Source: an uncultured delta proteobacterium (GTDB lineage Bacteria > Myxococcota_A > Polyangia > Polyangiales > Polyangiaceae). From it: a DNA stretch of 64,000 nt. Below, in pieces: positions 37,556 to 64,000 of this stretch. Where the stretch lies: positions 1,664,001 to 1,728,000 of the forward strand of contig CAWKKR010000008.1 in NCBI GenBank assembly GCA_963850305.1, written 5' to 3'. The position numbers and the translations under genes were made by a program. Numbering within the stretch: the stretch's first letter is position 1; each line of letters starts with the position of its first letter. A model generated the notes under the pieces. That model saw nothing but the letters and a program-made list of their open reading frames with translations. It did no database searches and was not told the DNA's origin.

Positions 37556-38662
37556 ATGAAACCTCGGATTGGATTCGTGCTCGAACAGGCGCTGGGCCAT
37601 GTCGCTTACGGGATGAGCCTGCGCAAAGCGCTCGCTGAACGCACGGATATGGAGACGGTTTGGATCGAAATCCCGTTCGGTGAAGGGCGAATCGGGAGGA
37701 TCCCCACGTTCGGAAAGAACTGGACCGTGCGCGGCAGCTTACGCGCGAGAAGAGCGATCGGGGATGCTCACCGCGCGCGGCCCTTCGATGCGCTGTTCGT
37801 GCACACACAGACGATCGGACTGTTCTCGGGCGATTACATGGCCAAGGTGCCGACGCTCATGTCACTCGACGCGACGCCGCTGAACTACGATGAGCTGGCG
37901 TCGTGGTATGGCGACCGGGTTCACGTCGCTCCGATCGAGCGGCTGAAGCTCATGGCTCACCGGGCGGTCATGCGCCGCGCGAAGAAGTTCACGGTCTGGT
38001 CGGACTGGGCGAAGCGTTCGCTCGTGCGCGACTATGGGGTCGACGGACGCGGCGTCACCGTTCTTCATCCCGGGACGACGCTATCGAATTTTCCCGACCC
38101 CGAAGCACGCGGGGACCGCCGACCTGGTCCGATCCGCATCCTGTTCGTCGGGGGCGACTTCGTCCGGAAGGGCGGGGATCTCCTGCTCGACGTGTACTTT
38201 CGGCACCTGCGAAGATCCTGCGAGCTCCATCTCGTGACGGGCGCGGACGTGACCACCGGAGACGGAGTTCACGTTTACAAGGGGGTCAAGCCGCACTCCG
38301 AGGTTCTCCTGAAGCTCTATGCGGACGCGGACGTGTTCGTGCTCCCGACGCGCGGCGATTGTCTGGCCGTCGTCCTTGGCGAAGCCATGGCGTCCAGTCT
38401 GCCGATCATCACGACCCGGGTCGGGGCGCACGCGGAAGCCGTGGACGAAGGACAGAGCGGCTTCGTCATCGATCCGGACGACGGCGAGGCGCTTCGAGAC
38501 AGGCTCGAGCGACTCGTGCAGGATCCGTCGCTCGCCGGCCGGATGGGCCGCCGTTCGCGCGAGATCGGCGAGGCCCGCTTCGACATGCAAAAGAACGCGA
38601 ATCACATCGCCGACATGCTGCTCGAGCTGAGCGGGTTCGGTGCATCGCCTGCCAGGAGCTGA
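37556..38662 (+). CDS. GT4-family glycosyltransferase
   Basis: ILFVGGDFVRKGG, ADVFVLPT, EAMASSLPIITT.VG..EAV. Confidence 0.9.
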   Translation: MKPRIGFVLEQALGHVAYGMSLRKALAERTDMETVWIEIPFGEGRIGRIPTFGKNWTVRGSLRARRAIGDAHRARPFDALFVHTQTIGLFSGDYMAKVPTLMSLDATPLNYDELASWYGDRVHVAPIERLKLMAHRAVMRRAKKFTVWSDWAKRSLVRDYGVDGRGVTVLHPGTTLSNFPDPEARGDRRPGPIRILFVGGDFVRKGGDLLLDVYFRHLRRSCELHLVTGADVTTGDGVHVYKGVKPHSEVLLKLYADADVFVLPTRGDCLAVVLGEAMASSLPIITTRVGAHAEAVDEGQSGFVIDPDDGEALRDRLERLVQDPSLAGRMGRRSREIGEARFDMQKNANHIADMLLELSGFGASPARS

Positions 38663-38663
38663 G

Positions 38664-39581
38664 ATGACCAACGTGCTCGTTACCGGCGGCGCCGGGTTCA
38701 TCGGCCTGCACCTCGTCGCGCGGCTCATCGAGCGCGGCGCGAGCGTCGTCATCCTGGACAACATGAAGCGGGCATCCAGAGCGAGCGTCGCGCCCCACGA
38801 GCGGAGCGGTCGTGTTCGCGTGATCGAAGGCGATATCCGCAGCTTCGAGGCCGTGGCGATCGCGGTGAGAGGATGCGACACGGTCTTTCACCTCGCCGCG
38901 CAGTCCAACGTGATGGGTGCGATCGACGATCCCGACTACAGCATCACGACGAACGTTCTCGGGACGTTCAACGTGCTTCGTGCCGCGGCGGACGCCGGGG
39001 TTCGGAAGGTCGTATTCACGTCGTCGCGGGAGGTGTACGGCGATCCGACGTCGCTGCCGGTCGACGAGAGCGCTCCGCTCCTGGCAAAGAACCCTTACGG
39101 CGCGAGCAAGGTCGCCGGGGAGGCCTACTGCCGCACGTTTGCGAATACGCGAGGGCTTTCGGTACATGTCGTCCGCCTCGCGAACGTTTACGGCCCCGGA
39201 GACAGCGGTCGGGTGATTCCGCTCTGGATAATGGCGGCGCGGAGCGGCGCGAATCTTCAGGTCTACGGCGGCGAGCAGGTCATCGATTTCCTGTGGGTCG
39301 GAACGGCGGTGGACGCCCTACTGTTCGCGGCAAAGGCGGGTCTCCCCGGTCCCGTGAACATCGGAAGCGGCGTCGGGACGAAGATCCTGGATCTCGCAGA
39401 GCGCGTGCTCGCGGCGACGGGTTCGAAGAGCAACGTCGTCAGGACGCCTGCTCGCGAGATCGAGGTGGCAAAGTTCATCGCGGACGTTCGGCTCATGCGG
39501 TCGCTGGGCCTTTCGCCGGAAACCGATCCGCTCGAGCATCTCACGGAGATCGTTCCCGCGTATCCACCCTCCGTGGGGTGA
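38664..39581 (+). CDS. NAD-dependent sugar epimerase/dehydratase
   Basis: VTGGAGFIG, HLAA, SSREVYG, YGASK, NVYGP. Confidence 0.92.
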   Translation: MTNVLVTGGAGFIGLHLVARLIERGASVVILDNMKRASRASVAPHERSGRVRVIEGDIRSFEAVAIAVRGCDTVFHLAAQSNVMGAIDDPDYSITTNVLGTFNVLRAAADAGVRKVVFTSSREVYGDPTSLPVDESAPLLAKNPYGASKVAGEAYCRTFANTRGLSVHVVRLANVYGPGDSGRVIPLWIMAARSGANLQVYGGEQVIDFLWVGTAVDALLFAAKAGLPGPVNIGSGVGTKILDLAERVLAATGSKSNVVRTPAREIEVAKFIADVRLMRSLGLSPETDPLEHLTEIVPAYPPSVG

Positions 39582-39600
39582 GCCCAGATCCCTCGGAGTG

Positions 39601-41103
39601 CTAAGCGTTCTGACGTCGCGCTTTGCGGGAGACGATCGCGCGGATCGCGTTCATTTGTTCCGAGTCGAGCCCCCCGATGGCCCAGAGAACGCCGGCATAC
39701 GCGGCGACCGCGACGGGTGCGGCCAGGAACGAGTTCACCCCGGAGAGAACGCGAGCGACGACCACCATGCCGACCCCTGCGACGAGGGCTTTCCCGATTC
39801 CGCGAAGCAGCGGCGGGGTGACGATCCCGCGTGGCGCGACGACGAGTCCGGCGATCACGGTCAGAAATTCACTGAATACGGTCGCGACGCAAACGCCGAG
39901 GCTGCCGTTCCCGGAGTGCCTCGCAAACCACGGGATGAGCACGGGATCGATGACCGCACTGATCACCACGCCACCGAGTTGCACGAGGGCCCACCGCTTC
40001 TGCAGGCCGGCCGCAGCCACCGCGGTACCGAGCGTCATCGAAAAATAAACCAGAAGCACGAAGACGGAGAGCACGCGAAGATCGTCCCCGGCCGGTCCGA
40101 ATGCGGAGTGGCCGAAAATGTCGATACCGATGTCCGCATAGAGTCCGCACCCCAGGGCGATCGGAACGACGAGGATCGTCGCCGTGCAGAGCGCGCCGCT
40201 GGTGCTGCGCCGGAATGCGTCGGCGTCCTCGGCGTGGAGCCGGCAGAGGGTCGGGTACAGCGCACTCACGAGCGAGGCTGCTGGAAACACCAGCACGCCG
40301 ACCAGCTTTCGTGCCGCAGCGAGCCATCCCATGGCTTCGGGGGTGGACAGTCTTGCGAGGAAAATGACGTCGACGTTCGGCTGAAGAGCCACCGCGAGGG
40401 CCGTGAACAGGAACGGCGCTCCGTCCTTCAACAGACGTTCGAGGCTATCGCGGCGCACTCTCAGCGCGGTGACCCCGACGGAACGCGCCGAAAGCACCAC
40501 CGGGACGCAGACGAGGAGGCTTGCGAGTGCCAGGACGCCGAGCGTCGCGCGGAGCTGTCCGCCGAGCAGCAACGTCGGTATCACGAGCAGCGCGGTGACG
40601 AGTTGCAGGCCCACGACCGAGTACGCGCGCACGTCCGCCCGCTCGAAGCCCATGACGGTGTCGGTGACGGCCGCGGTGACGGTGTAGATCGTGTTGGCGA
40701 GCACGACCAACGCGAGCGCCCACTGGAGGTCCGAGCCGTAGCCGAGCATCCGCCCAGCGAGGGCGAGGATCATATAAACGAACGGTGTCGCGAAAGCGCG
40801 CCACGCGAGCCCGCTACCGAGGAGCTCACCGGATTGCCTCCGATCTCGAGCGACCATCGAGGGCAAAGTTCCGGACTGGCCGCCTTCGACGACGAGGGAG
40901 CCGAGCCCGGCCATCATGCCGGCAAGGTAGATGAATCCGAAGTCACGCACGCCGAGGTGCCGCGCCATCACCGCGTTTACGAGGATGGAGAGCGGCATTC
41001 CGAGCGCCTGGGCCACGATCAAGAACAACGTGTTCTTGAGGACGATGCTGTGCGAAGTGGGCCGCGCCGCGTCGTCGGGGGGGCGAATCTCGACGTCGTT
41101 CAT
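39601..41103 (-). CDS. wzx: Wzx-type oligosaccharide flippase
   Basis: More than 10 TM helices; KNTLFL...ARHLGVRDFG; DVIFLARL...MGW...ARKL...LYPTL (MOP/PST pattern). Confidence 0.85.
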   Translation of the reverse strand: MNDVEIRPPDDAARPTSHSIVLKNTLFLIVAQALGMPLSILVNAVMARHLGVRDFGFIYLAGMMAGLGSLVVEGGQSGTLPSMVARDRRQSGELLGSGLAWRAFATPFVYMILALAGRMLGYGSDLQWALALVVLANTIYTVTAAVTDTVMGFERADVRAYSVVGLQLVTALLVIPTLLLGGQLRATLGVLALASLLVCVPVVLSARSVGVTALRVRRDSLERLLKDGAPFLFTALAVALQPNVDVIFLARLSTPEAMGWLAAARKLVGVLVFPAASLVSALYPTLCRLHAEDADAFRRSTSGALCTATILVVPIALGCGLYADIGIDIFGHSAFGPAGDDLRVLSVFVLLVYFSMTLGTAVAAAGLQKRWALVQLGGVVISAVIDPVLIPWFARHSGNGSLGVCVATVFSEFLTVIAGLVVAPRGIVTPPLLRGIGKALVAGVGMVVVARVLSGVNSFLAAPVAVAAYAGVLWAIGGLDSEQMNAIRAIVSRKARRQNA

Positions 41104-41235: not shown

Positions 41236-42249
41236 ATGCTCGAGTCAGTCGGTCTTTCCGTCGTCATTCCGACCTTCAACCGCAAAGAGCGCCTTTCGCG
41301 AGTACTCGCCGCGCTGGAACGGCAATCCGAGACCGCGGGTAGTTTCGAGGTAGTCGTCGTCGACGACGGGTCGACTGACGGCACCGCGGAATCCCTCCAG
41401 GCGCCGAGGTCCCGCTTCTCTCTGCAGATCTGCCGGCAACAGAACCACGGTCCCGCAAGGGCTCGAAACCATGGCGTAGAAAAAGCCCGCGGCCAGTTCG
41501 TCTTGTTTCTGGACGATGACGTGGAGCCGTTACCCGAGCTCATCATGGAACACCTTCGGGTGCATCGCAGCGAGGGAGCGCCGGTGGTCGTGATGGGGCC
41601 GCTCTCGTCTTTGCCTCACTATGCGCAGCCATGGGTGGCCTGGGAGCAGGCCAAGCTCGAGGCCCAATACGACGCGATGAGCCGCGGCGTCTACGCTCCC
41701 ACGTTCAGGCAATTTTGGACTGGAAACGCTTCGGTGGCGCGCGAGCACATCGTCGCCAGCGGCGGGTTCAATCCCGAATTCCTTCGCGGAGAGGACGTGG
41801 AGCTCGGCGTTCGTCTCCATGCACGAGGGCTCGGGTTCAGATTCAACCCCCGAGCGATCGGGTTCCACCACGCGGAACGATCGCTCGACTCGTGGTTGAA
41901 GGCGCACGCGAGCTATGGCCGGCTCGAGGTCGAGATTTTCGGTCATCTGGGGGAGCGTGAGCTCGTCGCTGCGCTGGCCGACAATTTCAGTCGTCTGCAT
42001 CGCGTTACACGGACGACACTCTATAGTTGCGTCGGGCGGCCGAAGCTTCACGCGACCGTCGTCGACTTCTTTCGGGCGTGGCTCCTTTCCCCCGCAGCGG
42101 CGCGCGCGCCGGTCGTGTCTCAGCGCGTCTGTAGCGTTCTCGCGAATCTCCTCTACTGGCACGCGTCTGCTGCGGCGCTCGGTCCGGCTCGTTTCCACGA
42201 GGTGCTGCACGCCGCGAGCGAGAGGACTCCGCCGCGAGTGCGACGCTGA
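41236..42249 (+). CDS. GT2-family glycosyltransferase
   Basis: SVVIPTFNR, VVDDGSTDGT, GPARARN, FLDDD, TGNAS, GEDVELG.R. Confidence 0.92.
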   Translation: MLESVGLSVVIPTFNRKERLSRVLAALERQSETAGSFEVVVVDDGSTDGTAESLQAPRSRFSLQICRQQNHGPARARNHGVEKARGQFVLFLDDDVEPLPELIMEHLRVHRSEGAPVVVMGPLSSLPHYAQPWVAWEQAKLEAQYDAMSRGVYAPTFRQFWTGNASVAREHIVASGGFNPEFLRGEDVELGVRLHARGLGFRFNPRAIGFHHAERSLDSWLKAHASYGRLEVEIFGHLGERELVAALADNFSRLHRVTRTTLYSCVGRPKLHATVVDFFRAWLLSPAAARAPVVSQRVCSVLANLLYWHASAAALGPARFHEVLHAASERTPPRVRR

Positions 42250-42334: not shown

Positions 42335-43705
42335 ATGGGTCAACTCCACGTCGCCGTCATAGGCACCGGATATGTCGGTCTGACCAATGCGGTCGCGCTC
42401 GCTCATTTGGGATGTCACGTGACGTGCGTCGATGTCGACGAGCGGAAGATCGCGCAGATCAACACAGGCAAGCTTCCGATCTACGAGCCGTATCTCGAGG
42501 AGCTCTCGAAGATGTCGCGGAGCCGGCTCGTCTTCACGACGGATTACGCGGTTGCAGTTCCTTCGGCGGACGTCGTGTTCATCGCCGTCGGAACCCCGCC
42601 GGGCCGCGAAGGAGCGCCGGATCTGAAGTACCTCGAGAGCGCCGCAAGAGCGGTCGGGGCACACCTGGGCGAAAAATTCACCGTCGTCGTGAACAAGTCG
42701 ACCGTGCCGATCGGAAGCGGAAACTGGGTCGAATCCATCGTGCGCGAAGCGTTCATCGGGCGCCGCGGATCGAAAGCAGAGCGTCGCTTCGCCGTCGCGT
42801 CAAACCCGGAGTTCTTGCGCGAAGGATCGGCCCTTCTGGATACGCTGTATCCGGACCGCACCGTCATCGGCGCCGACGACATTCGCGCCGTTCACGCTCT
42901 CGCCGATCTCTACCGGCCTATCACGGAACAAACGTTCGTCGCGCCAACTTTTCTCCCGCGGCCGGATGGTCTCGCCACCGTGCCGCTGATCACGACGGAC
43001 CTCGCGTCGGCCGAGCTCATCAAGTATTCGGCGAACGCGTTTCTGTCCCTCAAACTGAGCTTCATCAACGAGATCGCGGAGCTCGCGGAGAAGGTCGGCG
43101 CGGACGTCACGCAAGTTGCCAGGGGCATCGGGAGCGACGCACGGATCGGGAATCGATTTCTACTGGCGGGGATCGGTTGGGGCGGCTCCTGCTTCGGCAA
43201 GGACACTGCCGCTCTGGTGGCAACAGGGCGCGAATATGGGCTCTCGATGCCCATCGTCGCTGCGGCGCGCGAAGTGAATGCGCGTCAACGCGAACGGGTG
43301 ATAGAGAAGCTTCTCGGTGAGCTCAAGATCTTGAAAGGCCGGACCGTCGGGCTCCTTGGGCTTGCGTTCAAGCCGCTCACGGATGATCTTCGCGACGCGC
43401 CGGCACTCGACATCGCGCGGAGGCTCATCGAGCGCGGCGCCAAGGTTCGAGCACACGATCCCATCGCTCTCGAGCGAGCGCGTGCAGAAGCGGGCCTGCC
43501 GATCGAATACTGCGAAACGGCGGCTGCCGTGGCCGAAGAGGCGGATGCAATCGTCCTCGCGACGGAGTGGTCCGAATACGTCGACCTGCCCTGGACGGAA
43601 ATGGCAAAGGCCATGCGCGCGCCCTTGATCCTGGATGGGCGAAACGCATTGCCCCGTCTCGTCCTGGAACAGGCTGGTTTCCGTTACATCGGAATGGGAA
43701 GGTAA
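42335..43705 (+). CDS. ugd: UDP-glucose 6-dehydrogenase
   Basis: VIGTGYVGL, FIAVGTP, NKSTVPIG, SNPEFLREG, AELIKY.AN, GWGGSCFGKD, GLAFKP.TDDLR. Confidence 0.95.
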   Translation: MGQLHVAVIGTGYVGLTNAVALAHLGCHVTCVDVDERKIAQINTGKLPIYEPYLEELSKMSRSRLVFTTDYAVAVPSADVVFIAVGTPPGREGAPDLKYLESAARAVGAHLGEKFTVVVNKSTVPIGSGNWVESIVREAFIGRRGSKAERRFAVASNPEFLREGSALLDTLYPDRTVIGADDIRAVHALADLYRPITEQTFVAPTFLPRPDGLATVPLITTDLASAELIKYSANAFLSLKLSFINEIAELAEKVGADVTQVARGIGSDARIGNRFLLAGIGWGGSCFGKDTAALVATGREYGLSMPIVAAAREVNARQRERVIEKLLGELKILKGRTVGLLGLAFKPLTDDLRDAPALDIARRLIERGAKVRAHDPIALERARAEAGLPIEYCETAAAVAEEADAIVLATEWSEYVDLPWTEMAKAMRAPLILDGRNALPRLVLEQAGFRYIGMGR

Positions 43706-43708: not shown

Positions 43709-44638
43709 GTGCGAATATTGATCACGGGGGCAGCCGGCTTCGTCGGGAGTCATCTCGCGGCGAGGCTTCTTCGAGATGGCCATCGCGTCATCGGCGTAGA
43801 CAACTTCGTCACCGGAAGCCGGGACAACCTCGCCGACAAGATCGAAGACCCGAGCTTCGAATTCGTCGAAGCTGACGCCATCAATCCGCTCACCGTGGAG
43901 GGCGAACTCGATTGGGTGATGCATTTTGCCTGTCCGGCCTCGCCGCCGAAGTATCTCGCACGCCCGATCGAAACGCTCCGCGTCAGCGGGGAAGGCACGT
44001 ACCATTTGCTCGAACTCGCCGAGCGAAAGAAGGCGCAATTTTTCCTGGCGAGCACGAGCGAGGTTTACGGCGATCCACTGGTGCACCCGCAGCCCGAAAG
44101 TTACTGGGGTCACGTGAACCCGGTCGGCGAGCGGAGCGTTTACGATGAGGGAAAGCGCTACGCCGAGGCGATGACCGCTGCGTATCACCGCGGTCGGGGG
44201 TTGCCCATTCGCATCATCCGCATCTTCAACACCTATGGTCCGAAGATGGCGGCCGAAGACGGTCGCGTCGTCACGAACTTCGTCGTGCGCGCTCTCAAGG
44301 GACAATCGCTGGTTCTGTACGGTGAGGGCACCCAGACGCGAAGCTTCCAGTACGTCGACGATCTGGTGGAGGGCGTCGTTCGATTGATGGCAAAGCCATT
44401 CTTCCATCCCGTGAACCTCGGGAACCCGGATGAATACACGATCAGGATGTTCGCCGAGGTCATACGGGAACTGATTCCGACCGCGGGGCCTCTGGTTTTC
44501 GGGCCTCTTCCGTCGGATGATCCGAAGCAGCGCAAGCCTGACATCGCTGTGGCAAAGAAGCTGCTCGACTGGCAGCCGACCGTTCCACTTCGCGCCGGCA
44601 TCCGCGCGACGATCGACTACTTCCGCCCTCGGATCTGA
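43709..44638 (+). CDS. UDP-glucuronate decarboxylase (UDP-xylose synthase)
   Basis: ITGAAGFVG, HFACPASP, ASTSEVYGDP, YWGHVNPVG.RSVYDEGKR, RIFNTYGP, DGRVV.NF, DDPKQRKPDI. Confidence 0.9.
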   Translation: MRILITGAAGFVGSHLAARLLRDGHRVIGVDNFVTGSRDNLADKIEDPSFEFVEADAINPLTVEGELDWVMHFACPASPPKYLARPIETLRVSGEGTYHLLELAERKKAQFFLASTSEVYGDPLVHPQPESYWGHVNPVGERSVYDEGKRYAEAMTAAYHRGRGLPIRIIRIFNTYGPKMAAEDGRVVTNFVVRALKGQSLVLYGEGTQTRSFQYVDDLVEGVVRLMAKPFFHPVNLGNPDEYTIRMFAEVIRELIPTAGPLVFGPLPSDDPKQRKPDIAVAKKLLDWQPTVPLRAGIRATIDYFRPRI

Positions 44639-44785: not shown

Positions 44786-45959
44786 ATGAAGCGTCTCGTG
44801 CTGCTTGCTTCGTTGGTCGCCCTTCCGCTGTCCGCGGGGTGCATCGTTGCACCCTGTCCGCGTGGGCTCGTTTGCGGCGTGGTGGGGGCGGGAGGCGCGG
44901 GCGGCTCCGCGGGCGAGAGCGACGGTGACGTGCCCCTCAGGGAAGCAGGCGCCGACGGCACAGTCAATGCTCCGACTGGAACCTGGACCAACGTGACCGG
45001 CAGCCTTGCCGGTATGGATTCCGAATGCGGCAACATGTCGTTCGTGTCGGCCAAGCCGGACGAGGATTCTGCTCATCGCTGGCGTCGCCCTGAGGGGGCT
45101 GTGGGCGAGCACGGACGGAGGGGCGACGTGGCACGCCTTTGGGACGGGTGATGCCAGCTCGGGACCCATCACCAATCGGACGAGCTCCATCGTCTACGAT
45201 CCGGATCATCCCGAACGGTTCTGGGAAAGCGGGATCTACGACGGGGGCGGTGTTTACATCACGTCGGACGACGGAGAGACGTTCTCGGTCCTGGGCGATT
45301 CGCACCACGTGGACCTGGTGAGTATCGACTTCGAGGATCCCGACCGAAAGACGCTGGTTGCGGGTGGCCACGAGCAGTCTCGGACGCTCTACCAATCTTC
45401 GGACCGAGGCGCGACGTGGGCGAACATAGGGCTCAACTTCCGGAACGCGACCGACGTCTGCACGCGTCCTCTCGTGCTTACTCCAAGCAGCTATCTGGTC
45501 GGTTGTTCGACGTACGATGGCGGCGTCGACGGCATCCAGCGAACGACCGACTCCGGCAAGACCTGGTCACGAGTGACCAACTCCGTTGGCGGCGCGTCGG
45601 AGCCCCTGACTGCTTCCGACGGCGCGATCTACTGGACGACGGCCGGCGGCGGGATGGCGAAGAGCGTCGACGGTGGTCGAACCTTCACACAAATCGAGGG
45701 CTCCGAGGCGATCACGTCGCAATCGCCTCGGGAACTTCCGGGCGGGAGCATCGTTGCCCTCGGTCGCGATTACGTCATGCTGTCCAGGGATCACGGAGCG
45801 ACCTGGGACGCCGTGAGTTCGAAGCTTCCATACCAGGACGCTGTCGGAGTCGCGTACTCGAGGCAAGAGCGGGCGTTCTTCATCTGGCACTTCACTTGCG
45901 CGGACACGGTGCCGGCGGACGCGATCATGCGTTACGACTTCGACTACGAGAAAGACTGA
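44786..45959 (+). pseudogene. BNR/Asp-box beta-propeller lipoprotein split by a frameshift (pseudogene or sequencing error)
   Basis: ORF 44786 (lipobox SAGC...KPDED) continues into frame +1 LLIAGVALRGLWASTDGGATW if one base at about 45068 is removed; multiple SxDxGxTW Asp-boxes. Confidence 0.75.
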
Positions 45960-45969: not shown

Positions 45970-47139
45970 ATGGATTCTGCAGCAACGACCCAGTCAGCGA
46001 GTCCCGGGCGGCGCTACCTCGGTCACGTGGAAGGGCTTCGCGCTCTGGCGGCGCTGATGGTCTTCCTGAACCACGCTTACGCGCAAAGCTACCGCGGGGG
46101 TCTGGACCACGCGACCGGGCTGCTGGCACCATTCAGCCTGTCGATGATTGGCGGTCATCTGGCCGTCAGCGTCTTCATCGTCATCTCGGGGTTTTGCCTG
46201 ACGCTGCCCGTCGTCGACGCGAAGGGTGAGCTCCGCGGTGGCACACGCGCCTTCTTCAAACGACGCGCACGGCGCATCTTGCCGCCTTACTACGGGGCAC
46301 TCGGGCTCTCCTTGCTACTGATCCTGACGCTCATCGGGAACAAGACAGGGACCTTGTGGGACGTCTCGAATCAGATCGACTGGAAAGCGTTTGTCGCGCA
46401 CGTGGCACTGGTCCAGGACCTATTTCGTACCGGACGCATCAACTACGTGTTCTGGTCGATCGCGGTCGAATGGCACATCTATTTTCTGTTTCCCCTGCTG
46501 CTGTGGGGCGTCCGTCGCGTCGGCGTCGTCCGGGTCACCATGGCTGCGTTGCTCTTAGGCTACGCGATCCGCTTCGGGTTCGACGGTGACCGAATCGAGC
46601 GCGCCAATCCACAGTATCTCGGCCTGTTCGCGCTCGGCATGCTCGCGGCTTACGTCACATCATCCCCGGAAACGAGGTTCGTGCGGCTCCGCGGGAGCCG
46701 GTGGTGGAGCGTGCTCGCCGCGTGTCTTCTTCTTCTCACGACCTCGCTCGCCGCCAGGTGGGGCGTCGCCGTCGGCGTCACGCGATTCCACTACCTCGAC
46801 GGTCTCGTCGGGGCGATGGCGATGGCGACGCTGATCCACGCGTCGTCGTGGCCGAAGTCGCGGCTCACGCGCTTTCTCTCCCGGAGGTCGCTCGTCTTCG
46901 TCGGCACGTTCTCGTATAGCTTGTATCTGGTGCACGCCCCCTTGCTCCAGCTGCTGTGGCAGTACGTGCTCCATCCGTTGAACCTCACGGCTTCGGAGAT
47001 GTTCCTCGCGCTCGTCACCTTCGGCCTGGTAACGGTGCTCCTCTCGGCCTACCTGTTCTTCCGGGTATTCGAGGAACCGTTCATGCGGTCATCCTCGCGT
47101 TCGACGGTGCGGAGTCCGGGCGCGCAACCGGCGATCTGA
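45970..47139 (+). CDS. Acyltransferase-3 (OafA-like) membrane O-acyltransferase
   Basis: EGLRALAAL.V...H, AVSVFIVISGF, FFKRRARRILPPY, WSIAVEWHIY, SYSLYLVH, FEEPF. Confidence 0.92.
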   Translation: MDSAATTQSASPGRRYLGHVEGLRALAALMVFLNHAYAQSYRGGLDHATGLLAPFSLSMIGGHLAVSVFIVISGFCLTLPVVDAKGELRGGTRAFFKRRARRILPPYYGALGLSLLLILTLIGNKTGTLWDVSNQIDWKAFVAHVALVQDLFRTGRINYVFWSIAVEWHIYFLFPLLLWGVRRVGVVRVTMAALLLGYAIRFGFDGDRIERANPQYLGLFALGMLAAYVTSSPETRFVRLRGSRWWSVLAACLLLLTTSLAARWGVAVGVTRFHYLDGLVGAMAMATLIHASSWPKSRLTRFLSRRSLVFVGTFSYSLYLVHAPLLQLLWQYVLHPLNLTASEMFLALVTFGLVTVLLSAYLFFRVFEEPFMRSSSRSTVRSPGAQPAI

Positions 47140-48268: not shown

Positions 48269-48407
48269 CTCCACGCCCGAGCAGAAGCCGCGCGAGCCGA
48301 GTTCGTGCCGGTGCACACGGGAGCGGAAGGCCGAGCAGTCGACAGGAAGTTGACGACGGAATGGCGATCGACATCGCGTGAGTCTATGCTTTCGCGAGAA
48401 GGTCTTC

Positions 48408-55908: not shown

Positions 55909-56997
55909 TCACCGTGAGTGCCGCTCGAGGTCCGCGACGACGCAGAGATGGTCGGAAGCGCCTGGGCACCCGACGGAGAACCCGGAGAAGCGCAGTTCGC
56001 GGGTGGCGAAGATCCTATCGATGCGCATCCAGGGGTGTCGTGCGGGAAACGTGTATCCAAATCCGAAGCCGGCCATCGAAAAGCCATCCTGGTATCGCCC
56101 GAGGTACCGCCGGACCAGAGGACTGACCGTGGGTAAATTCGTGTCGCCCGCGATGACTACCGGCTCCGTCTCCCGGTCTGCGTCGGCCGCGAAGGCCCGG
56201 ACTTGTTGCTCGCGCAGCCCCGAGCTTTCGCGCAACGCCTCGGCGTTGGCGGCGGCGAAGAACCTGCCCGACAGGATTTCCCTCCGCAGACCGTGACCGC
56301 GGAGCGCGTAGAAGCCGCCGCGGGGCGAAAGCGGATGAACGACGTAGAGTACGATGCGCCCAAGCGGAGTCCGCAAAACGTGCCGGAGGTAGCGCGGCGA
56401 ATGACTCCGCCCATAAAACGGAATGCGCGGAGGAGTCTGCGTTTCCGCGATCGGAAACCGCGACGCAATGACGAACTGATTGGACGCCTCCACGACGGGA
56501 TAGTGGGTCCGGAGCAGAGCGACGAGCGTTGATGAATTGGCGAGGACCTCCTGAAACACAGCGACGTCCGGATGGAATTTCAGCACTTGACCAACGACTT
56601 TGTCGAACCCCTCTCGACCAGAGTCCACGTTGAAACTCAAGAGCCGGAACTTCGGTGCGTCCCTTGATGGGAACATGGGCCACGGGACGGAGAAGCCCAT
56701 CATGGGAAAAAGTACGAGCCACGCGGCGGCAAGCTGCGTGTAGAGCAAACGCCTGAAACCGAACGCGAAGAGGGTGAGCGCAAAGAAAGGGATCGGCGCG
56801 AGGAAGATGCCGAATGGAAGGTAAAGTGCGGTGGCCGTTGCCCACCAGTGTTCTCCCACGGTGCGAATCCAGACCGTCAGGACGCCGACACCGACGAGAT
56901 ACGCGGTCGCGGCGGCGGCGACGGCTCGGCCGAACCACGTGGCTATGGCCCCGCGGGCCGTTCTCGTTCCGCGCGCTCCCGAGCCGTTCGTACCCAT
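55909..56997 (-). CDS. Membrane-anchored endonuclease/exonuclease/phosphatase (EEP) family protein
   Basis: 3 N-terminal TM segments; LLSFNV, PDVAVFQE, SRFPI, AGDTNLP, GYTFP, RIDRIF, SDH. Confidence 0.85.
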   Translation of the reverse strand: MGTNGSGARGTRTARGAIATWFGRAVAAAATAYLVGVGVLTVWIRTVGEHWWATATALYLPFGIFLAPIPFFALTLFAFGFRRLLYTQLAAAWLVLFPMMGFSVPWPMFPSRDAPKFRLLSFNVDSGREGFDKVVGQVLKFHPDVAVFQEVLANSSTLVALLRTHYPVVEASNQFVIASRFPIAETQTPPRIPFYGRSHSPRYLRHVLRTPLGRIVLYVVHPLSPRGGFYALRGHGLRREILSGRFFAAANAEALRESSGLREQQVRAFAADADRETEPVVIAGDTNLPTVSPLVRRYLGRYQDGFSMAGFGFGYTFPARHPWMRIDRIFATRELRFSGFSVGCPGASDHLCVVADLERHSR

Positions 56998-58160
56998 TCG
57001 GCGTCCGAGCGTGCCGGCCGTCCGGCAAGCGTCGCCTTCCATACGATGTACGCTGGTGCCAGCGCAAGGTCGACCAAGCCGCGAGCGCCGGTCCCTGAAA
57101 CCGCCCATCCGCGAAGAACGTAGGCGATGACGGAGAAGACGCTCGTGCCATATACGGCCCGGCTCAATGGCAGACGGACTCCCAGCAGATTCGCAGCGGC
57201 AACGACAGAAAGTCCGACGGACGCGAGCACCGCGACACGGGACAGAGGCGGCACCAGCACATCCAGCGCGAGGTCGAAGCAAAGCTTGTCGCCCGAGAGG
57301 GCCTTTCGGAGAAGTCTCGCCGCATACTTCCTCGTGAGCGCGGCCCGGCCGCCCTCCCACCTCTCGCGCTGCGATCGCGCCGCCCTCGCGTTCGAGACCA
57401 TCTCTCCGTAGACGTGTGCTTCGTCGGCGTAGAAGACACGGAATCCGGCCTCGGCGAGTCGAATTCCGTACTCGACATCCTCGACCACCGAGAAGGCCTC
57501 GTGCGGAACTTGGCGTAGCACCGACGCGCTGAAGCACATGCCGTTTCCCCGCAACCCCGCGGAAACGCCCATACGCTCACGGCCTCGCGATCGGACGATG
57601 TGGAACGCGCCGAAAGCGATGGCGATGAGCCGCGTCCGCCAACCCGCGTTCGGGTTTCTGACCGCGTAATCCGCTTGCACGGCATGGGCGCCCGCGAGCA
57701 AGCGGGCTTCGAACGCCCTGAGTAGGTTCGGCGAAACGAGGGTGTCCGCGTCGATCACCGCCACGGCATCGACGTTTTCCGGAAGTCGCTCGAACGCGTG
57801 GTGGAGCGCGTAGCCTTTACCGCGCTCCGTCTCGCTTCGCCGCTCGAGCACGACGGCACCCGCGCGCCGCGCCTGGTCTGCCGTGTCGTCCGAGCAATTG
57901 TCCGCGATCACCAGCACGTCGAACAACTCGCGCGGATAGTCGATCGCGAGGAGACTCTCGACGGTCGCACCGATACCGGCCGATTCGTCGTGGGCAGGAA
58001 CGCAAATCCGGAACCGCGTCTTGGGCGCGCGAATCCCGGGGACTGGTAGCCGCTCCGGCTCGGGTCTCGACGAAAGCGCCGTGAGAAGCAACAAGTAGCC
58101 CGCCCACATGAGCACGGGCGTCCCGAAGAGGGCGAAGATGAGGTCCCAAACGAGGGTCAC
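56943..58160 (-). CDS. Membrane GT2 glycosyltransferase
   Basis: VPAHDES, IADNCSDDT, GKGYAL, IDADT, GNGM, VED, QRERW; N- and C-terminal TM helices. Confidence 0.92.
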   Translation of the reverse strand: MTLVWDLIFALFGTPVLMWAGYLLLLTALSSRPEPERLPVPGIRAPKTRFRICVPAHDESAGIGATVESLLAIDYPRELFDVLVIADNCSDDTADQARRAGAVVLERRSETERGKGYALHHAFERLPENVDAVAVIDADTLVSPNLLRAFEARLLAGAHAVQADYAVRNPNAGWRTRLIAIAFGAFHIVRSRGRERMGVSAGLRGNGMCFSASVLRQVPHEAFSVVEDVEYGIRLAEAGFRVFYADEAHVYGEMVSNARAARSQRERWEGGRAALTRKYAARLLRKALSGDKLCFDLALDVLVPPLSRVAVLASVGLSVVAAANLLGVRLPLSRAVYGTSVFSVIAYVLRGWAVSGTGARGLVDLALAPAYIVWKATLAGRPARSDAEWVRTARERAERERPAGP

Positions 58161-59716
58161 GCCGCTTGCTCCGCGCGGGGCATCGACGCCGTAGGACGCG
58201 CTTCACGCGACTTCTTCTTGCCCCATTGCCCCGTGTAGACGGCAAGCTTCCCGGCAACCGCAATGGACGGAGCGACCATGTAAACACCGGTCCAGGAACC
58301 GAGGCCCATGTCGCCCCAGCACTGGATCATGTAGATCACGACCGCGCCGAAGCTGACGATCGCGGCGGCGCGATGAGCGGGCTTCGTCGCCCCGTGATAG
58401 GCGCGAATGCCGAAATACACGCCGACGGTCCAGAGGAGCGTCATGGCCGTGTACCCGAAGTATCCGCAATAGCACCACAGGCCGAGGATGCTGTTATGGG
58501 GAACGAAGCGTTCGAGCGGGTAATCGATCACCGGAAGTTGAACGACCTCGTGATAGCCGTGTCCGTACCCGGTTCCGAAGATCGGATTCTCGCGGACCGT
58601 TGCGATGAGGTCGTAGTTCTCCATCTCGCGCCACATCGTCGAGGCGTCGGCCTGCGCGTCCACGACGGATCGGATGGTCTCGACAGGCTTGAAGAACGAC
58701 GATTTGGAGTTCCATCCTGCGAGACAGTAGGCGACGAGGATCGGGCTCAATGCGTAGATGGTGCGTCGAAGCTTTCTCTTAACCGGATTGTCGGGTGTCA
58801 CGAAGTAAACAGTCAGAAACACAACTGCAACCTGAACCCAGGCCATCCGACGGTTGTTCGAGACGATGCCGAGGGCGAGGACCGGGATGAGCAGGAGAGC
58901 AAGCCTCCGCGTCGAGCGCCCCACACGCTCCATCACGGTCGCGAGCAGCAAGACGAACGCGCATGCGAAGAGCATCGAGTCGTGATGAGTCGTGGCGTAG
59001 GGGAGGCGAGTGCTGCCGGTGTCCGGATCCATCGGGCCGACCACGGTATTGATGACGTAGGTTGCGAGGAGAGCCTTGTACGTCGCTGCGACCAGCACGA
59101 CGCGTGCTAGCGCCGCGTGGTCCCTTGGTCCGCGAAGCCCGAGTTGGAACAGGAGAAATACGATCGGCAGATACATGACGCGGTTCATCTGCCAGAGGGA
59201 CATGCTGAAATCCCCGCCTCGCGCCATGCCACTCACGAACACGTACGCCGTCCCGCCGAGCGACAGGTACGCGAGCGTGATGAGCGGCTTTGGGGTCGAG
59301 ACCCGCCCCAGCCGATCGATGTTCGACGCGGTCAGTCGCCTCGAAAGTGCGATGAACCCGAGCGAGAGGAGACAGATGTCCATGCCCGAGAACGACATCC
59401 ACGACGTCGCGCCGATGCTGCGATCGACGGCGTTCAGATGTGTGAGCATGATCGCGCCAACCGTGAAGAACGGAGTCCTGAACACGTTGTAACCCGGGGC
59501 TTCCGCCGGATTTTCGAGCGTGAACGCCAGAAACATCAGTGCCATCATCGAAGTTCGAAGCGGCACGCGGCTCATCGCGTAGATACCGAGGACGAAGACG
59601 AGCGGTGTGAGCACGAGCCCCAGCGTCGTGTCACCGATTGCCAAACCGCCGAGGGTGAGGAGCAGGCCGAGAGTCAGGGCAACCTTGACATCTCCGCCAA
59701 TCTTCGCGTCGGCCAT
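58157..59716 (-). CDS. wzy: Wzy-like polysaccharide polymerase (O-antigen ligase-like fold)
   Basis: Multi-TM; NNRR.AW, STMWREMEN, NPIFGTGYG, PHNSILGLW (Wzy_C pattern); next to the co-polymerase. Confidence 0.8.
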   Translation of the reverse strand: MADAKIGGDVKVALTLGLLLTLGGLAIGDTTLGLVLTPLVFVLGIYAMSRVPLRTSMMALMFLAFTLENPAEAPGYNVFRTPFFTVGAIMLTHLNAVDRSIGATSWMSFSGMDICLLSLGFIALSRRLTASNIDRLGRVSTPKPLITLAYLSLGGTAYVFVSGMARGGDFSMSLWQMNRVMYLPIVFLLFQLGLRGPRDHAALARVVLVAATYKALLATYVINTVVGPMDPDTGSTRLPYATTHHDSMLFACAFVLLLATVMERVGRSTRRLALLLIPVLALGIVSNNRRMAWVQVAVVFLTVYFVTPDNPVKRKLRRTIYALSPILVAYCLAGWNSKSSFFKPVETIRSVVDAQADASTMWREMENYDLIATVRENPIFGTGYGHGYHEVVQLPVIDYPLERFVPHNSILGLWCYCGYFGYTAMTLLWTVGVYFGIRAYHGATKPAHRAAAIVSFGAVVIYMIQCWGDMGLGSWTGVYMVAPSIAVAGKLAVYTGQWGKKKSREARPTASMPRAEQAA

Positions 59717-59726: not shown

Positions 59727-61250
59727 TCAATCCGAGGAGCGCGGCGGGAACCGTAGCTCTCCGAGCACGGGAAGCGAAATCTGTTCGACCTGCCAGCGCG
59801 CCACGATTTTATTTCGGAGGAGTTCCGCTGCGATCGCCGAGAGGAGCGAGAAGAATACGGCCGCGAAGATCCCGGCGCCGACGAGAAGCCGAATCTTCGG
59901 CTTGACGGCCTTCAGGGGAACCTGCGGCGGAACGACGATCTTGTACCGGTGGTTGAACGCCGCCTGAGCGGTATCGAGATCGATCCGAGCGGAGCTGATC
60001 TGTCCGCGAAGCGTCGTGTACTTCTCGACTGCGTACCGTAGCTGCGCGGCCACCGCCGGATCGGGTGCGTCCGCATCTTCTGCCATGAGATTCATGATCT
60101 CTTCCGGCAACGGTCCCGCGCCTGCGGATGCCGCGCTGTTTGCCGGCGAAGTCATCGCGATCGTCCCGCCCCCTGCCTCCGGGGTACCGGTCGTGGAGTC
60201 CGAGCGGCTCTTGATCTGCGCTTCGAGGTCCTTGACGTCGGCCCGCAGAGTCGTCACCTGCGGTGACGGCTGGCTGACCGCGAGGAGCGCCTGCTGGGCA
60301 TCGACGACCGCGGGATGCGCCGGGGTGTACTTCGCTCGCAGATCGACTAGCTTCGCCTGGAGGTCGAGCAGCCGGCGGTTTCTGTAATCTTCGAGTTCGG
60401 CTATCGTTCGCTGCTTGGTTTCGAGCGTGGCCTTCAGCGTTGCCAGCTCGTCTTCGTCCGCTTGAGAAGGCGGGCGCGGTGCGGACGGTCGCCGCACCGT
60501 CGTGGTGGTGACGGCCGCGCCGGGCGCGCTTTCCGCTGGTATCTTGGCCTTTCCGCGTGCCGCCGCGATCTTGGCTTCCCGCATCCTCTTCAGCTGTCCC
60601 GCGATGTCCTCGACCTCGCCCCGCAGCGTCGTCGCGTGCCCCTCGAGGATGGAAATGTACTCGGCGAGAGTGGAGATCTCGGCAACGTGCCGTGCTTCGA
60701 GGAAATTCTCCTCCGCCACCTCGAGGATCCTCGCCGAGGTCTCGGCGTCGGGCCAGTCCACCATGAACGTCAACGTCGAATCCGTTGCCGCGACCGAGAG
60801 ATGGTCTCCGAGTGTGAAGAGAAGGGCGCTCTCGCGATCCTTCTCGCTGAGCGGTCCGCGGATCTTGTCCATCACCGCGTCCTTGAGCTTCAGGATGAAC
60901 GGTCTCTTCGCCTCCCACGCGTGCACCAGATCTGCCTGCTTCACGATCGCTTCCAGATTGTCCTGGCGCATGACGAGATCGTAGGCATTCCTGAGCGGGT
61001 AATTGTTCCCGTCGCCGCGCAGGGCGAAGACCTCGTTGGTCTGTGCCATCAGGCGCGATTCGCAATAGTAAGTCCGTGGCCAGAGGGTGACGAGCGCGAC
61101 GGTGACTCCGATGATCCCCAGGAAGACCCCTCCGACGAGGAATGGGCGACGAAGGACGGCTCGCACCCCGAAAGCGAGGTAGCTCTTCAGGACGTCGCGC
61201 GATACCCCGCCGGAGGTCTCTTCCCCGTCCTCCTCCTCATCGTCTTTCAT
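59727..61250 (-). CDS. Polysaccharide co-polymerase (Wzz/Wzc-type, no fused tyrosine kinase)
   Basis: TM1 + PRTY, long coiled coil with YTPAHPAV, Pro-rich PPQVP..KP + TM2, LPVLG tail. Confidence 0.85.
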   Translation of the reverse strand: MKDDEEEDGEETSGGVSRDVLKSYLAFGVRAVLRRPFLVGGVFLGIIGVTVALVTLWPRTYYCESRLMAQTNEVFALRGDGNNYPLRNAYDLVMRQDNLEAIVKQADLVHAWEAKRPFILKLKDAVMDKIRGPLSEKDRESALLFTLGDHLSVAATDSTLTFMVDWPDAETSARILEVAEENFLEARHVAEISTLAEYISILEGHATTLRGEVEDIAGQLKRMREAKIAAARGKAKIPAESAPGAAVTTTTVRRPSAPRPPSQADEDELATLKATLETKQRTIAELEDYRNRRLLDLQAKLVDLRAKYTPAHPAVVDAQQALLAVSQPSPQVTTLRADVKDLEAQIKSRSDSTTGTPEAGGGTIAMTSPANSAASAGAGPLPEEIMNLMAEDADAPDPAVAAQLRYAVEKYTTLRGQISSARIDLDTAQAAFNHRYKIVVPPQVPLKAVKPKIRLLVGAGIFAAVFFSLLSAIAAELLRNKIVARWQVEQISLPVLGELRFPPRSSD

Positions 61251-61278
61251 TTCGCGTTACCTACCCGCGCTACCGTTC

Positions 61279-61446
61279 TCAAAGCCGACCGTAAATGAAC
61301 AGCAATCCGAACAGGTAGAGCGCGTTGAAGACGGCGATCTGAACGACGACCTTTCGCAAACCCCGTTTCGGGCTCTTCTGGCGGGCCGCCCGAGCCGGAA
61401 GGGCCACGGTCGCGATCATGATGGAGAGCAGGACAAGCTTCGACAT
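61279..61446 (-). CDS. 55-aa membrane protein heading the co-polymerase/wzy operon
   Basis: MSKLVLLSIMIATVALPARAARQKSPKRGLRKVVVQIAVFNALYLFGLLFIYGRL; GGAG RBS; two hydrophobic segments around a basic loop. Confidence 0.7.
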   Translation of the reverse strand: MSKLVLLSIMIATVALPARAARQKSPKRGLRKVVVQIAVFNALYLFGLLFIYGRL

Positions 61447-61623
61447 GGGTGAAACTCCGGCTGAACCGGCGTTCTCCTCGGAAACGATTCCCCATCCTGA
61501 CAATTAGGCCGCACCGGCGCAAGAACGTCCGTCGGCGGGGGCCGGTTCCCGTTGCCCGGCCAGCTCTCGGGGGCGAGAATTGCCAGGGAACTGCCGACCG
61601 ATGATAAGAAGCCCCGAGCCCAC

Positions 61624-62685
61624 ATGCGCACGCTGATTCTCGCCGCCGGTCGGTTCGGCGACGCCATGCGCGAGGCGGTTCGCGCCGGTCGCGAGCCACG
61701 ACTGGACGTATTCGAGATCGCCGCCCGGCTCGGAGCTGATGTGATCGACTACCGCGACGCCGATGCGTCCAGCCTGCAAGGGGTGCGCCTCGTCGCGCGC
61801 GCGCTCGGGGCATCGGCCGCGGTGGCCTTTCTCGGTTACCTCGAGCGGGCGCGCTACGACGCCATCCTGACCACCGGTGAAGACATCGGCTTGCCGCTCG
61901 CGTCGCTGCTCAAGACCACCAGCGCGAGGTGCTCCCACACCATGATCGCGCACACGCTCGCTCCGACGAAGAAGAGGGTGTTCTTTCAGTATTTGCGCGT
62001 GGAAGACAGGATCGATCGGATTCTCGCGTACTCGACGTCGGAGGAATCGAACATGATCGGCCGCCTCGGCATTCCGAGACGCAAGGTGGAGCGGATCTAC
62101 TTTCACGCAGACCAGCAATTTTTCAATCCCAGCGCGGAGGTTGTCGAGCCGGATTTGATCTGTGCCGCGGGGCAGTTGCTCCGCGACTATGACTGTCTCA
62201 TCGACGCCGTGCGCGGTCTTCCCGTCAAGGTTCAGATCGCGGCCGGCAGTCCGTGGATCGCGCGACCGCTGAAGCCGCGCGCGGCACTGCCTTCGAACGT
62301 CAACTGGGGCCGCCTCGGGCGCTCGGACCTCCGAAAGCTATACGGTCGGTCCGCGCTCGCCGTGGTGCCCATTCTCGAGAACGACTACCAGACGGGCATC
62401 GCGACCATCCTCGAGATGATGTCCATGGGTAAGTGCGTCATCGCCACCCGTACGCGCGGTCAGACCGACACGATCATCGACGGCCAGACGGGCGTGTACG
62501 TGCCGCCCAGTGATCCCGTTGCTCTCCGCTCGGCCATCACGCGGATGCTTGCGGCGCCGGCGGATGCCGCGCGGTTAGGAGCGGCCGCGCGACGCTTCGT
62601 GGAAGAACATGCCAGCCTGGACCGCTTCGTCGAACGGATCGTCGCTGCGGTCCGCGAAGGTCATGCCACCCGATTCGCCGCCTGA
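61624..62685 (+). CDS. GT-B fold (GT4-like) glycosyltransferase
   Basis: CAAG...RDY..L, LY.RS...VVP, GIATILEMMSMGKCVIAT, GVYVPPSDP. Confidence 0.85.
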   Translation: MRTLILAAGRFGDAMREAVRAGREPRLDVFEIAARLGADVIDYRDADASSLQGVRLVARALGASAAVAFLGYLERARYDAILTTGEDIGLPLASLLKTTSARCSHTMIAHTLAPTKKRVFFQYLRVEDRIDRILAYSTSEESNMIGRLGIPRRKVERIYFHADQQFFNPSAEVVEPDLICAAGQLLRDYDCLIDAVRGLPVKVQIAAGSPWIARPLKPRAALPSNVNWGRLGRSDLRKLYGRSALAVVPILENDYQTGIATILEMMSMGKCVIATRTRGQTDTIIDGQTGVYVPPSDPVALRSAITRMLAAPADAARLGAAARRFVEEHASLDRFVERIVAAVREGHATRFAA

Positions 62686-62704
62686 GTTTTTCGCCGCGGC
62701 CCGC

Positions 62705-64000
62705 TTGCTTCGAGCGCGGGACCATCTCGGTGCTCTCGGATTACGCGCCTCGCTGCTGTCCGGCGTGGCGCTGGCGTGCACGGTATTCGGTTGTCGGCGG
62801 ACGGCGGCGCCTCCGCCTGTCTCCGTCGTGCCGATGCACCGGGTTCGCACTCGCGTCACGATCGCGAATGTCGTCTACGATGGGAACCTCGGCGACGGTT
62901 GGTCCGATTGGGGTTGGGGGCCGCACGACCTGAAACAGGGAGCACCAGCGCGAGTGTCGTTCGACGGTTTCGGTGGCATCATCCTGCATCATGACGAACT
63001 CCCCTCGCAGTTCGGGGGCTTGTCGTTTCGATTCCGCGCGCCTCCTGGCTACGGAGACTTCCTTCAGGTCTCTCTTCAGTACAAGCAGGTCGATGAGGAG
63101 AAGCTACCGCTCGTGCCGATCGAGCCGCGACACATCGCGCTGCTCGATGGTGGTTGGAGTGAAGTGCTCGTCCCCTGGGCGGCGCTGGACCCAGATGGTT
63201 CCCCGTTCGACCGCATCCAGATCAGCGCGCGACTCAGCACGCCGCCGGGCATGGTCGAACTCGATCACATCGTGCTGACGAAGGCAGACGCGACCTCCTC
63301 CGTTCCCACGACGAGCCTTTCGCCCGCGACTCCCGTCCACCTTTACGTCGACTGCGGCAAGCCGGTAACGCGCATAAGCCCTCTCGTCTACGGGGTCGCG
63401 GGCGGCTCCTGGGCACTGGGTTCACCAGCGCGGCGCTTGGGCGGAAACCCGATGACCCGCCTGAACTGGGACATCGGAAACGCATGGAACACCGGGAGCG
63501 ACTGGTTTTTCGAGAACGTGCAAGGTTCCACCACGACGCTGTCGCAATGGATCGACGACGACGTGGCGCACGGAGTGAAGACAGCGCTGGTCGTTCCTAT
63601 GATCGGGTGGGTAGCGAAGGATACGACGTCGGTCGGGTTCCCCGTGTCGGAGCTTCCACCGCAGCAGAAGCACGACCAATACAGACCCGAAGCCGGCGAC
63701 GGCATCCGCGCCGACGGCTCGCCGATGTCCCCGCTCCCGCCCACCCAGACGAGCGTTGCGGTTCCGCCGGAAGTCGTACGCCGGTGGATCGAGACGGTTC
63801 GAGATCACGACCGCGCGCGGGGCAAGCGCGGCGTCGACGAGTACATCCTCGACAACGAGCCGAATCTCTGGAGTACGACTCACCGCGACGTTCACCCCTC
63901 GCCGCTCACGTACGACGAGCTTCTCGATCGCACCATTCAATACGGGAGTGCCATCAGAAAAGCCGACCCCGATGCCGTCATCGCCGGGCCCGCGGCGTGG
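62705..64000 (+). CDS. Glycoside hydrolase family 44 lipoprotein, partial (runs off the right edge; not in the ORF track)
   Basis: Manual translation: lipobox VFGC, YDGNLGDGWSDWGW, ISPLVYG, RRLGGNPMTRLNW, NTGSDWFFEN, PMIGWVAKD, YILDNEPNLWSTTHRDVHP, IAGPAAW. TTG start inferred. Confidence 0.85.
   Translation, partial: MLRARDHLGALGLRASLLSGVALACTVFGCRRTAAPPPVSVVPMHRVRTRVTIANVVYDGNLGDGWSDWGWGPHDLKQGAPARVSFDGFGGIILHHDELPSQFGGLSFRFRAPPGYGDFLQVSLQYKQVDEEKLPLVPIEPRHIALLDGGWSEVLVPWAALDPDGSPFDRIQISARLSTPPGMVELDHIVLTKADATSSVPTTSLSPATPVHLYVDCGKPVTRISPLVYGVAGGSWALGSPARRLGGNPMTRLNWDIGNAWNTGSDWFFENVQGSTTTLSQWIDDDVAHGVKTALVVPMIGWVAKDTTSVGFPVSELPPQQKHDQYRPEAGDGIRADGSPMSPLPPTQTSVAVPPEVVRRWIETVRDHDRARGKRGVDEYILDNEPNLWSTTHRDVHPSPLTYDELLDRTIQYGSAIRKADPDAVIAGPAAW

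Follow-up and report, generated by a model that had tools for sequence, protein, structure and literature searches.

A four-gene cluster encoding a nonribosomal peptide synthetase (NRPS), a polyketide synthase (PKS), a glycosyltransferase (GT) and a phosphopantetheinyl transferase (PPTase) is found in 28 of 57 roseobacter genomes, and the passages that deal with it give its product as uncharacterised (PMC4337385) or not identified (PMC5014874). Because a Ruegeria locus has the same four-gene make-up, it is taken here to be this cluster. The present analysis concerns a type I PKS gene in a 64,000-nucleotide stretch of DNA (the window; contig CAWKKR010000008.1 of assembly GCA_963850305.1, positions 1,664,001 to 1,728,000) from an uncultured delta proteobacterium of the Polyangiaceae. 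Together with an NRPS loader encoded elsewhere on the contig, the PKS is a split, methyltransferase-bearing myxobacterial version of the known orphan NRPS-PKS cassette, set in an island of the exopolysaccharide (eps) type, and not a new lipid-anchor system. The genome of the window is denoted G000 (assembly of 6.26 Mb, 94.8% complete) and its contigs C8 and C1, the window being on a contig of 1.99 Mb; other G numbers are genomes of relatives, and L numbers are extracted loci.

As in the Roseobacter cassette, the G000 PKS and loader are present as full-length orthologs, and the genome also encodes GT2, Wzy-like and PPTase proteins belonging to the cassette's families. Unlike the cassette, G000 has its four genes in three separate C8 loci, its loader carries an extra methyltransferase, and its PKS lies in a Myxococcus-type eps locus. 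The eps Wzx/Wzy pathway of Myxococcus xanthus is described in passages of PMC7484181 and PMC12004946; the word “polyketide” has no occurrence in PMC7484181, which defines the pathway. The resemblance to Myxococcus eps seen in the earlier note is borne out by the best NCBIfam matches (EpsA, EpsB, EpsD, EpsU, EpsV, Wzy_EPS and Wzx_EPS), all of which score under the equivalog cut-offs. In M. xanthus the priming transferase EpsZ and EpsY belong to the cluster, whereas in G000 the priming transferase is of WcaJ type and 1.2 Mb off, and EpsY-like genes are elsewhere (C1:611 kb and C8:530 kb). The window in turn adds ugd, a uxs-like gene, AT3, OpgC, EEP and PKS genes.

For phthoxazolin and conglobatin, passages of PMC5764310 and PMC4504003 propose starters of the type F-A(Gly)-PCP with malonyl as the next extension. 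Like the OzmO, CongA and PtxE loaders of such oxazole polyketides, the G000 loader is a formyltransferase-A-PCP starter (A, adenylation; PCP, peptidyl carrier) that would feed a PKS adding malonyl. It differs in the luciferase-like oxygenase of its A domain, in its methyltransferase, and in the one cis-AT module with a thioesterase (TE) that follows. The capsule PKSs RkpA and WcbR are treated in a passage of PMC3908369. The window PKS shares with them a single module of type I and a place next to polysaccharide genes, and the earlier note had drawn on them for a lipid-anchor analogy. RkpA and WcbR have the domain order KS-AT-DH-ER-KR-ACP, are fully reducing, with an enoylreductase (ER), and have no TE. 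The window PKS is set apart from this order by the absence of ER, by a dehydratase (DH) placed after the ketoreductase (KR), by its TE, by priming from an NRPS and by its Wzx/Wzy context; the analogy is not supported, given the missing ER, the TE and the NRPS loader.

The PKS and its distant loader

Pfam profiles give the PKS the domain order KS-AT-psiKR-KR-DH-ACP-TE, with no ER. All catalytic motifs are intact: VQTACSSS, HGTGT and GHL in the ketosynthase (KS), GHSMG in the acyltransferase (AT), GGIGGIG and YTAAN in KR, HxxxGxxxxP and HPALLD in DH, GGQSL in the acyl carrier (ACP), and GYSGG and GDH in TE. VQTACS, which we take to be a hybrid-KS motif, gave no match in a search of the open-access literature. 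Over 2203 aa the protein shares 41% identity with the PKS of the Ruegeria cassette. A PDB search returned domain-level matches only, none covering KR through DH.

The KR-DH segment was used to define the PKS family. Scoring of 7998 candidates gave at least 1905 protein clusters (90% identity) that match it at E<=1e-40. In a set of 251 Polyangiaceae genomes, in which kin are not independent, 26 have full-length matches and 47 have any match. The closest named relatives are Polyangiaceae or Polyangia records, and of the homologs whose downstream context is available, the nearest are L177 (66%) and that of G090 (57%). The neighbours of PKSs of this family are mostly NRPS loaders, built of a formyltransferase or condensation (C) domain, an A domain with a luciferase-like monooxygenase insert (LLM), an optional methyltransferase and a PCP. 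Plasmid copies of the PKS occur in Ruegeria, Parasedimentitalea, Aminobacter, Paracoccus and Deinococcus. Three of these records give the loader the annotation MupA/Atu3671; a Shinella record is unannotated.

Variants of the PKS were also seen. The protein of L002:496-8565 (2689 aa) has an additional psiKR-KR block, placed after ACP and before TE, and further homologs have an insert of ER type or are without TE. A carbamoyltransferase flanks one subgroup (L197, L199, L219, L222, L223, L225, L229, L235, L237, L246), and TauD dioxygenases flank another (L221, L224, L226, L227, L232, L233, L241), in some with a penicillin amidase; the two subgroups show that further pathways also draw on the KR-DH module. 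The gene immediately upstream of the closest PKS homolog is an LPG_synthase_TM (flippase-like) gene (L177:654-1796). Elsewhere in G000, C1:382273-386114 gives several weak ketosynthase matches in two adjoining frames of about 760 aa.

The single loader gene of G000 (C8:1595353-1601161) lies amid housekeeping genes, at a distance of 112 kb from the PKS. Its product has the domains FT-A(LLM)-MT-PCP (FT, formyltransferase; MT, methyltransferase), with an LLM of the MupA/Atu3671 type; it scores 493 bits with TIGR04020 (cut-off 244), and its identity to the Ruegeria loader is 42% over 1332 aa. TIGR04020 is found in 24 of the 251 genomes, and 22 of the 26 carriers of a full KR-DH segment have it; in G239 the two genes are far apart and possibly unrelated. 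At 15 of 22 Polyangiaceae loci the loader LLM lies inside the extracted stretch.

Trees were made with FastTree from 114 KR-DH segments and from 62 LLM sequences. The window PKS falls in a clade of 35 of the 114 (support 0.997). The 18 members of this clade with a recovered LLM, G000 included, make up exactly one clade of the LLM tree (18 of 62, support 0.945), and all 18 have the methyltransferase insert, against 0 of the 44 outside. Because the PKS and loader clades match, with the loader of G000 among them, the distant loader is regarded as the cognate partner, the best-supported finding of the analysis, and the G000 PKS very probably pairs with this protein from 112 kb away. The earlier note had taken the PKS to stand alone; its loader lay outside the part of the genome then in view. 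The pair is split in G056 as well, with 39 kb between the genes.

The N-H-D triad of the loader formyltransferase and the S-adenosylmethionine (SAM) motif are present. The motifs FDIHVLE, THLQCTPS, VLLGGE and NMYGPTETTVW give the A-domain pocket D-I-L-Q-L-G-M-V-W-K, presumably a glycine code, and these motifs are near-constant across the loaders compared. A PDB search with the A domain covered its N-terminal half only and says nothing on specificity.

Polysaccharide genes in the window and across the PKS family

Loci were counted as polysaccharide-linked when they held at least two core polysaccharide genes, one seed set being used throughout. Myxococcota loci of at least 12 kb (40 of 43 examined) and metagenome loci of at least 15 kb (39 of 80 examined) were scored. 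The control was generic-KS loci of at least 15 kb (62 of 72 examined); these 72, mostly long cyanobacterial assembly lines, came from the 74 loci of a full-length PKS scan swamped by cyanobacterial KS matches. As a background, G000 was cut into 149 windows of 40 kb or 293 windows of 21 kb. Linkage was found at 14 of 40 Myxococcota loci (4 of 22 inside the Polyangiaceae and 10 of 21 outside them, counted over all 43 examined), at 6 of 39 metagenome loci, and at all six hand-picked plasmid loci, the plasmid copies from the five genera named above sitting amid polysaccharide genes. The corresponding numbers are 0 of 62 in the control, and 6 of 149 (40-kb) and 7 of 293 (21-kb) in the background. 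Enrichment for polysaccharide genes thus recurs across phyla, as the locus reading of the earlier note would have it.

In G068 a single contig carries the PKS, the loader, wzy (34%), an EpsU-like GT2 (51%), GH44, Wza, Wzx, WcaJ (60%) and a second NRPS/PKS line, and another contig carries a TagA-OpgC-co-polymerase group with a PPTase. Going by gene content, G068 has in joined form what is distributed over three loci in G000. An LPG_synthase_TM gene is found near the TagA-OpgC-co-polymerase group (L337:10324-11361), with a 45% homolog in G000 at C1:418 kb.

OpgC homologs occur in 8 of the 251 genomes and in none of five congeners. The three best (42-46%) are in the PKS carriers G068, G002 and G090. 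The PKS is present in 3 of the 7 other OpgC genomes, against 0.7 expected, two of the three being of one genus. In G002 the OpgC gene has amidase, CBM96, GST and GH43 neighbours. The OpgC-like protein is a candidate for the acyl transfer on these grounds. AT3, the transfer enzyme put forward in the earlier note, was rejected in this role: it is kept in congeners that have no PKS, and it lies near a PKS in only one fetched locus, itself a seed.

The only PF02397 priming transferase gene of G000, of WcaJ type, is at C8:524915, and directly behind it is a long PPTase gene (C8:526367-527065); the other PPTase of G000 is a short AcpS-sized frame. In the same locus (C8:525-537 kb), GT2c (C8:529499-530491) is 41-42% identical to the GT2 of the Ruegeria and Parasedimentitalea cassettes, and the Wzy-like protein is 32-36% identical to the Roseobacter-group copies. 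The larger region C8:524915-551942 (L146, L147) holds WcaJ, PPTase, Wzy-like, GT2, EpsY-like, beta-barrel-like and Wzx genes and a fused NRPS/PKS line (A-PCP-KS-AT; ACP-aminotransferase; C-A-PCP-C-A-PCP-TE), orthologs of which (43-48%) are found within eps-type loci of G068 and G198.

The genes of the window locus were called with Pfam profiles and translations, and NCBIfam models served for the eps assignments (Table 1). All genes and strands named in the earlier note were confirmed. The convergence of the TagA and PKS genes on a 16-bp gap and the 201 bp between the EEP gene and the PKS ATG are as it described them, and the flanking flippase, two GT4 genes, epimerase and GH44 gene are present. 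The eps set consists of Wzx, Wzy, a kinase-less polysaccharide co-polymerase, EpsA-, EpsD- and EpsU-like glycosyltransferases and GH44. The 64 kb hold no priming transferase and no OPX exporter, both of which are elsewhere in G000.

Table 1. Genes of the eps-type locus, in window positions.
Feature	Position	Strand	Basis and remarks
GT4	37556..38662	+	PF00534
NAD-dependent epimerase/dehydratase	38664..39581	+	PF01370
Wzx flippase	39601..41103	-	PF01943; NF041871
GT2, EpsD-like	41236..42249	+	NF041875, 304 bits (cut-off 370)
UDP-glucose 6-dehydrogenase (ugd)	42335..43705	+	PF03721/PF00984/PF03720
UDP-glucuronate decarboxylase-like (uxs-like) SDR	43709..44638	+	PF01370
BNR-repeat lipoprotein-like gene, frameshifted in the assembly	44786..45959	+	Pfam, translations
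AT3 acyltransferase (Acyl_transf_3)	45970..47139	+	PF01757
OpgC-like membrane acyltransferase (OpgC_C), accessory	47144..48268	+	PF10129
WecG/TagA glycosyltransferase, EpsA-like	48378..49241	+	PF03808; NF041872
Type I PKS, 2149 aa	49258..55707	-	Pfam; catalytic motifs
EEP-family protein, hydrophobic N-terminus	55909..56997	-	PF03372
GT2, EpsU-like	56943..58160	-	NF041865, 496 bits (cut-off 700)
Wzy polymerase (Wzy_C), Wzy_EPS-like	58157..59716	-	PF04932; NF041870, 376 bits (cut-off 670)
Polysaccharide co-polymerase, EpsV-like	59727..61250	-	No Pfam match; NF041864, 245 bits (cut-off 800)
55-aa hydrophobic protein	61279..61446	-	No Pfam match; homologs 60% in G072 and 34% in G166 eps loci
GT4	61624..62685	+	Pfam; orthologs 68-74% in related eps loci
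GH44 hydrolase, EpsB-like	62663..64000, continuing to window-equivalent 64831	+	PF12891; NF041873

The uxs-like label of the SDR gene is our assumption from sequence likeness. The frameshift of the BNR gene splits it between the frames at 44786 and 45006. Orthologs of the EEP gene (46-52%) are found in eps loci without a PKS (G145, G103, G198), and by this distribution the gene is assigned to the eps island. A promoter and terminator scan of the EEP-PKS gap gave nothing, such a scan being uninformative for this bacterial group. Just past the window end is a gene of 174 aa (C8:1728902-1729423; L150:4899-5423, minus strand) that has no Pfam or NCBIfam match and has homologs (35-60%) in many related eps loci; it could, as a guess, encode an EcpK-like pseudokinase. 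Upstream of the locus, positions 25107-36066 hold a nitrate/nitrite assimilation run by Pfam (a HemD-domain protein, NirB-type nitrite reductase, MoeA and MobA), preceded by a molybdopterin oxidoreductase-like gene assigned from its N-terminus. A repeat-rich lipoprotein at 36343-37551 (minus strand), probably a beta-propeller, has no Pfam match.

Possible role of the NRPS-PKS pair

The reading favoured here, to which we give somewhat less than an even chance, is that the pair builds a short acyl group from glycine and malonate, to be attached to a surface polysaccharide. In a line of two proteins, the NRPS loader and the PKS, the latter would carry out extension and release, and the Sfp-type PPTase beside the sole priming glycosyltransferase would prime both carriers. 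From the pocket motifs and the presumed code, the loader A domain would load glycine. The formyltransferase would N-formylate it, the inserted methyltransferase would methylate it, and the luciferase-like domain would oxidise it on the carrier, a step modelled on MtaG and its A-embedded monooxygenase. The KS would add one extender, assumed to be malonyl from the AT motifs (GHSMG...AAHS), and KR and DH would yield a 4-amino-but-2-enoyl skeleton that, for want of an ER, would stay unsaturated. Release of the acyl unit, or its transfer to a sugar, would fall to the TE, and GT2c and OpgC are candidates for attachment to the glycan. The product is likely to be a small acyl group of this kind, derived from an amino acid, rather than a lipid anchor.

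The weight on the target polymer is divided about half each. The Eps-type polymer of the window is considered because of the position of the PKS, the OpgC-like protein and the G068 precedent, and the polymer of the C8:525-537 kb locus because the usual GT2, Wzy-like, Wzx and PPTase companions of the family lie there. A fuller version of the favoured reading is rather unlikely as a whole: that N-formyl, N-methyl, oxidised glycine-derived unsaturated acyl groups are placed on Wzx/Wzy polysaccharides by a widespread NRPS-PKS line, and that the system was recruited at least twice in some Polyangiaceae to Myxococcus-type motility exopolysaccharide, with an OpgC-like transferase and in trans from distant loci. 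Recruitment at least twice is suggested because G000 and G068 carry different PKS subclades.

A number of observations weigh against the favoured reading. The enrichment is overstated, because some seeds came from the tested loci and because the plasmid loci were hand-picked, and the larger part of the loci (26 of 40 in Myxococcota, 33 of 39 in metagenomes) have fewer than two core polysaccharide genes. The window Wzy is matched in 88 of the 251 genomes, and PKS and wzy overlap in 6 of 87, against 8.7 expected. Fifteen related wzy loci of 7-90 kb were read (11 together with G099, G162, G166 and G068), and 14 have no PKS, G068 being the exception. Five of six congeners lack both the PKS, by profile search, and TIGR04020, yet keep eps genes: wzy in four at 55-62%, TagA in 5 of 5 at 60-62%, and AT3 orthologs at 65% in 3 of 5. 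In each congener read, the genes of the eps island stand in a different order, so the position of the PKS is weak evidence when taken alone. At the two closest PKS homologs with downstream context, L177 and G090 (contigs of 9 and 5 kb), the loader adjoins the PKS and no core eps gene is seen. The cassette's usual companions, GT2c and the Wzy-like protein, lie in the C8:525-537 kb locus. GT2c is found in 18 of the 251 genomes, 6 with the PKS, and in the co-occurrence count its overlap with the PKS is 5 of 17; as a strictly PKS-specific partner it was rejected, the other 12 having polysaccharide genes there and no PKS. The earlier note had held that PKS orthologs mostly unlinked to exopolysaccharide genes would count against it. 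This is borne out in part, by a PKS-wzy overlap no higher than chance and by the related wzy loci that have no PKS. The open-access literature yielded no product for the NRPS-PKS pair, nor did passages of PMC4359443 and PMC9769649, and no product, expression or mutant data for the pair were found.

The scarcity of polysaccharide genes at most family loci, the lack of co-occurrence of PKS and wzy and the varying order of the eps island would also fit a pair whose product is a small molecule, either free or carrying a single sugar; the PKS would then have landed in the island because the island is a hot spot of shuffling and insertion. The TE is complete, and other NRPS/PKS lines occur in such islands (G198, G068). 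This explanation is doubtful, though it keeps real weight; the enrichment is seen again in Alphaproteobacteria, in Deinococcus and in several families of Myxococcota, and the PPTase gene lies directly behind the only priming transferase gene. A further point against the favoured reading is a frameshift in the loader near C8:1599.3 kb, just after the LYRTGD motif. Taken with the 112 kb between the partners and their absence from five of six congeners, it could mark a decaying relic, a pair split by rearrangement, with a genuine pseudogene for a loader and a PKS that no longer serves a function. However, the 6.4-kb PKS frame and all its catalytic motifs are intact, and the G056 pair is also apart. 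The assembly has about 14 candidate frameshift sites in 147 kb of homolog-covered DNA, or about 1 per 10 kb of conserved coding DNA, so that one in a 5.8-kb gene is expected from assembly noise, the loader frameshift is compatible with sequencing error, and split genes should not be called pseudogenes without reads. Among sequencing runs, no RNA run with G000 in it was listed, and the short contigs of one DNA run with a small G000 share span neither the PKS junctions nor the loader frameshift. A relic is judged unlikely.

The order of KR before DH without ER in the window PKS, a single module with a TE, is reminiscent of iterative polyene-forming PKSs. With the loader as its starter, the enzyme would then iterate (KR and DH, no ER), and its glycine-primed polyene would make the glycan amphiphilic or anchor it. 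Polyene tailoring genes were not seen among the conserved neighbours, and we consider this very unlikely. The reading of the earlier note, that of a stand-alone RkpA/WcbR-like PKS whose fatty acyl product is transferred by AT3 and OpgC proteins or serves as a lipid anchor, draws on the physical position of the gene and on the best OpgC matches being in PKS carriers. It is highly improbable, since the PKS has no ER and has a TE and a cognate loader, AT3 is kept without it, an OpgC match is absent in 22 of the 26 PKS genomes, and export is of the Wzx/Wzy type and not of the capsule ABC type.

The G000 locus is a warning for cluster-based mining, which would take its PKS for a stand-alone enzyme. 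The G000 genome is also a poor test system, cultured Roseobacter-group carriers being better suited. If the favoured reading of polysaccharide decoration is true, assembly-line chemistry would be at work on a bacterial surface glycan, and this would explain why extract-based screens have found no molecule.

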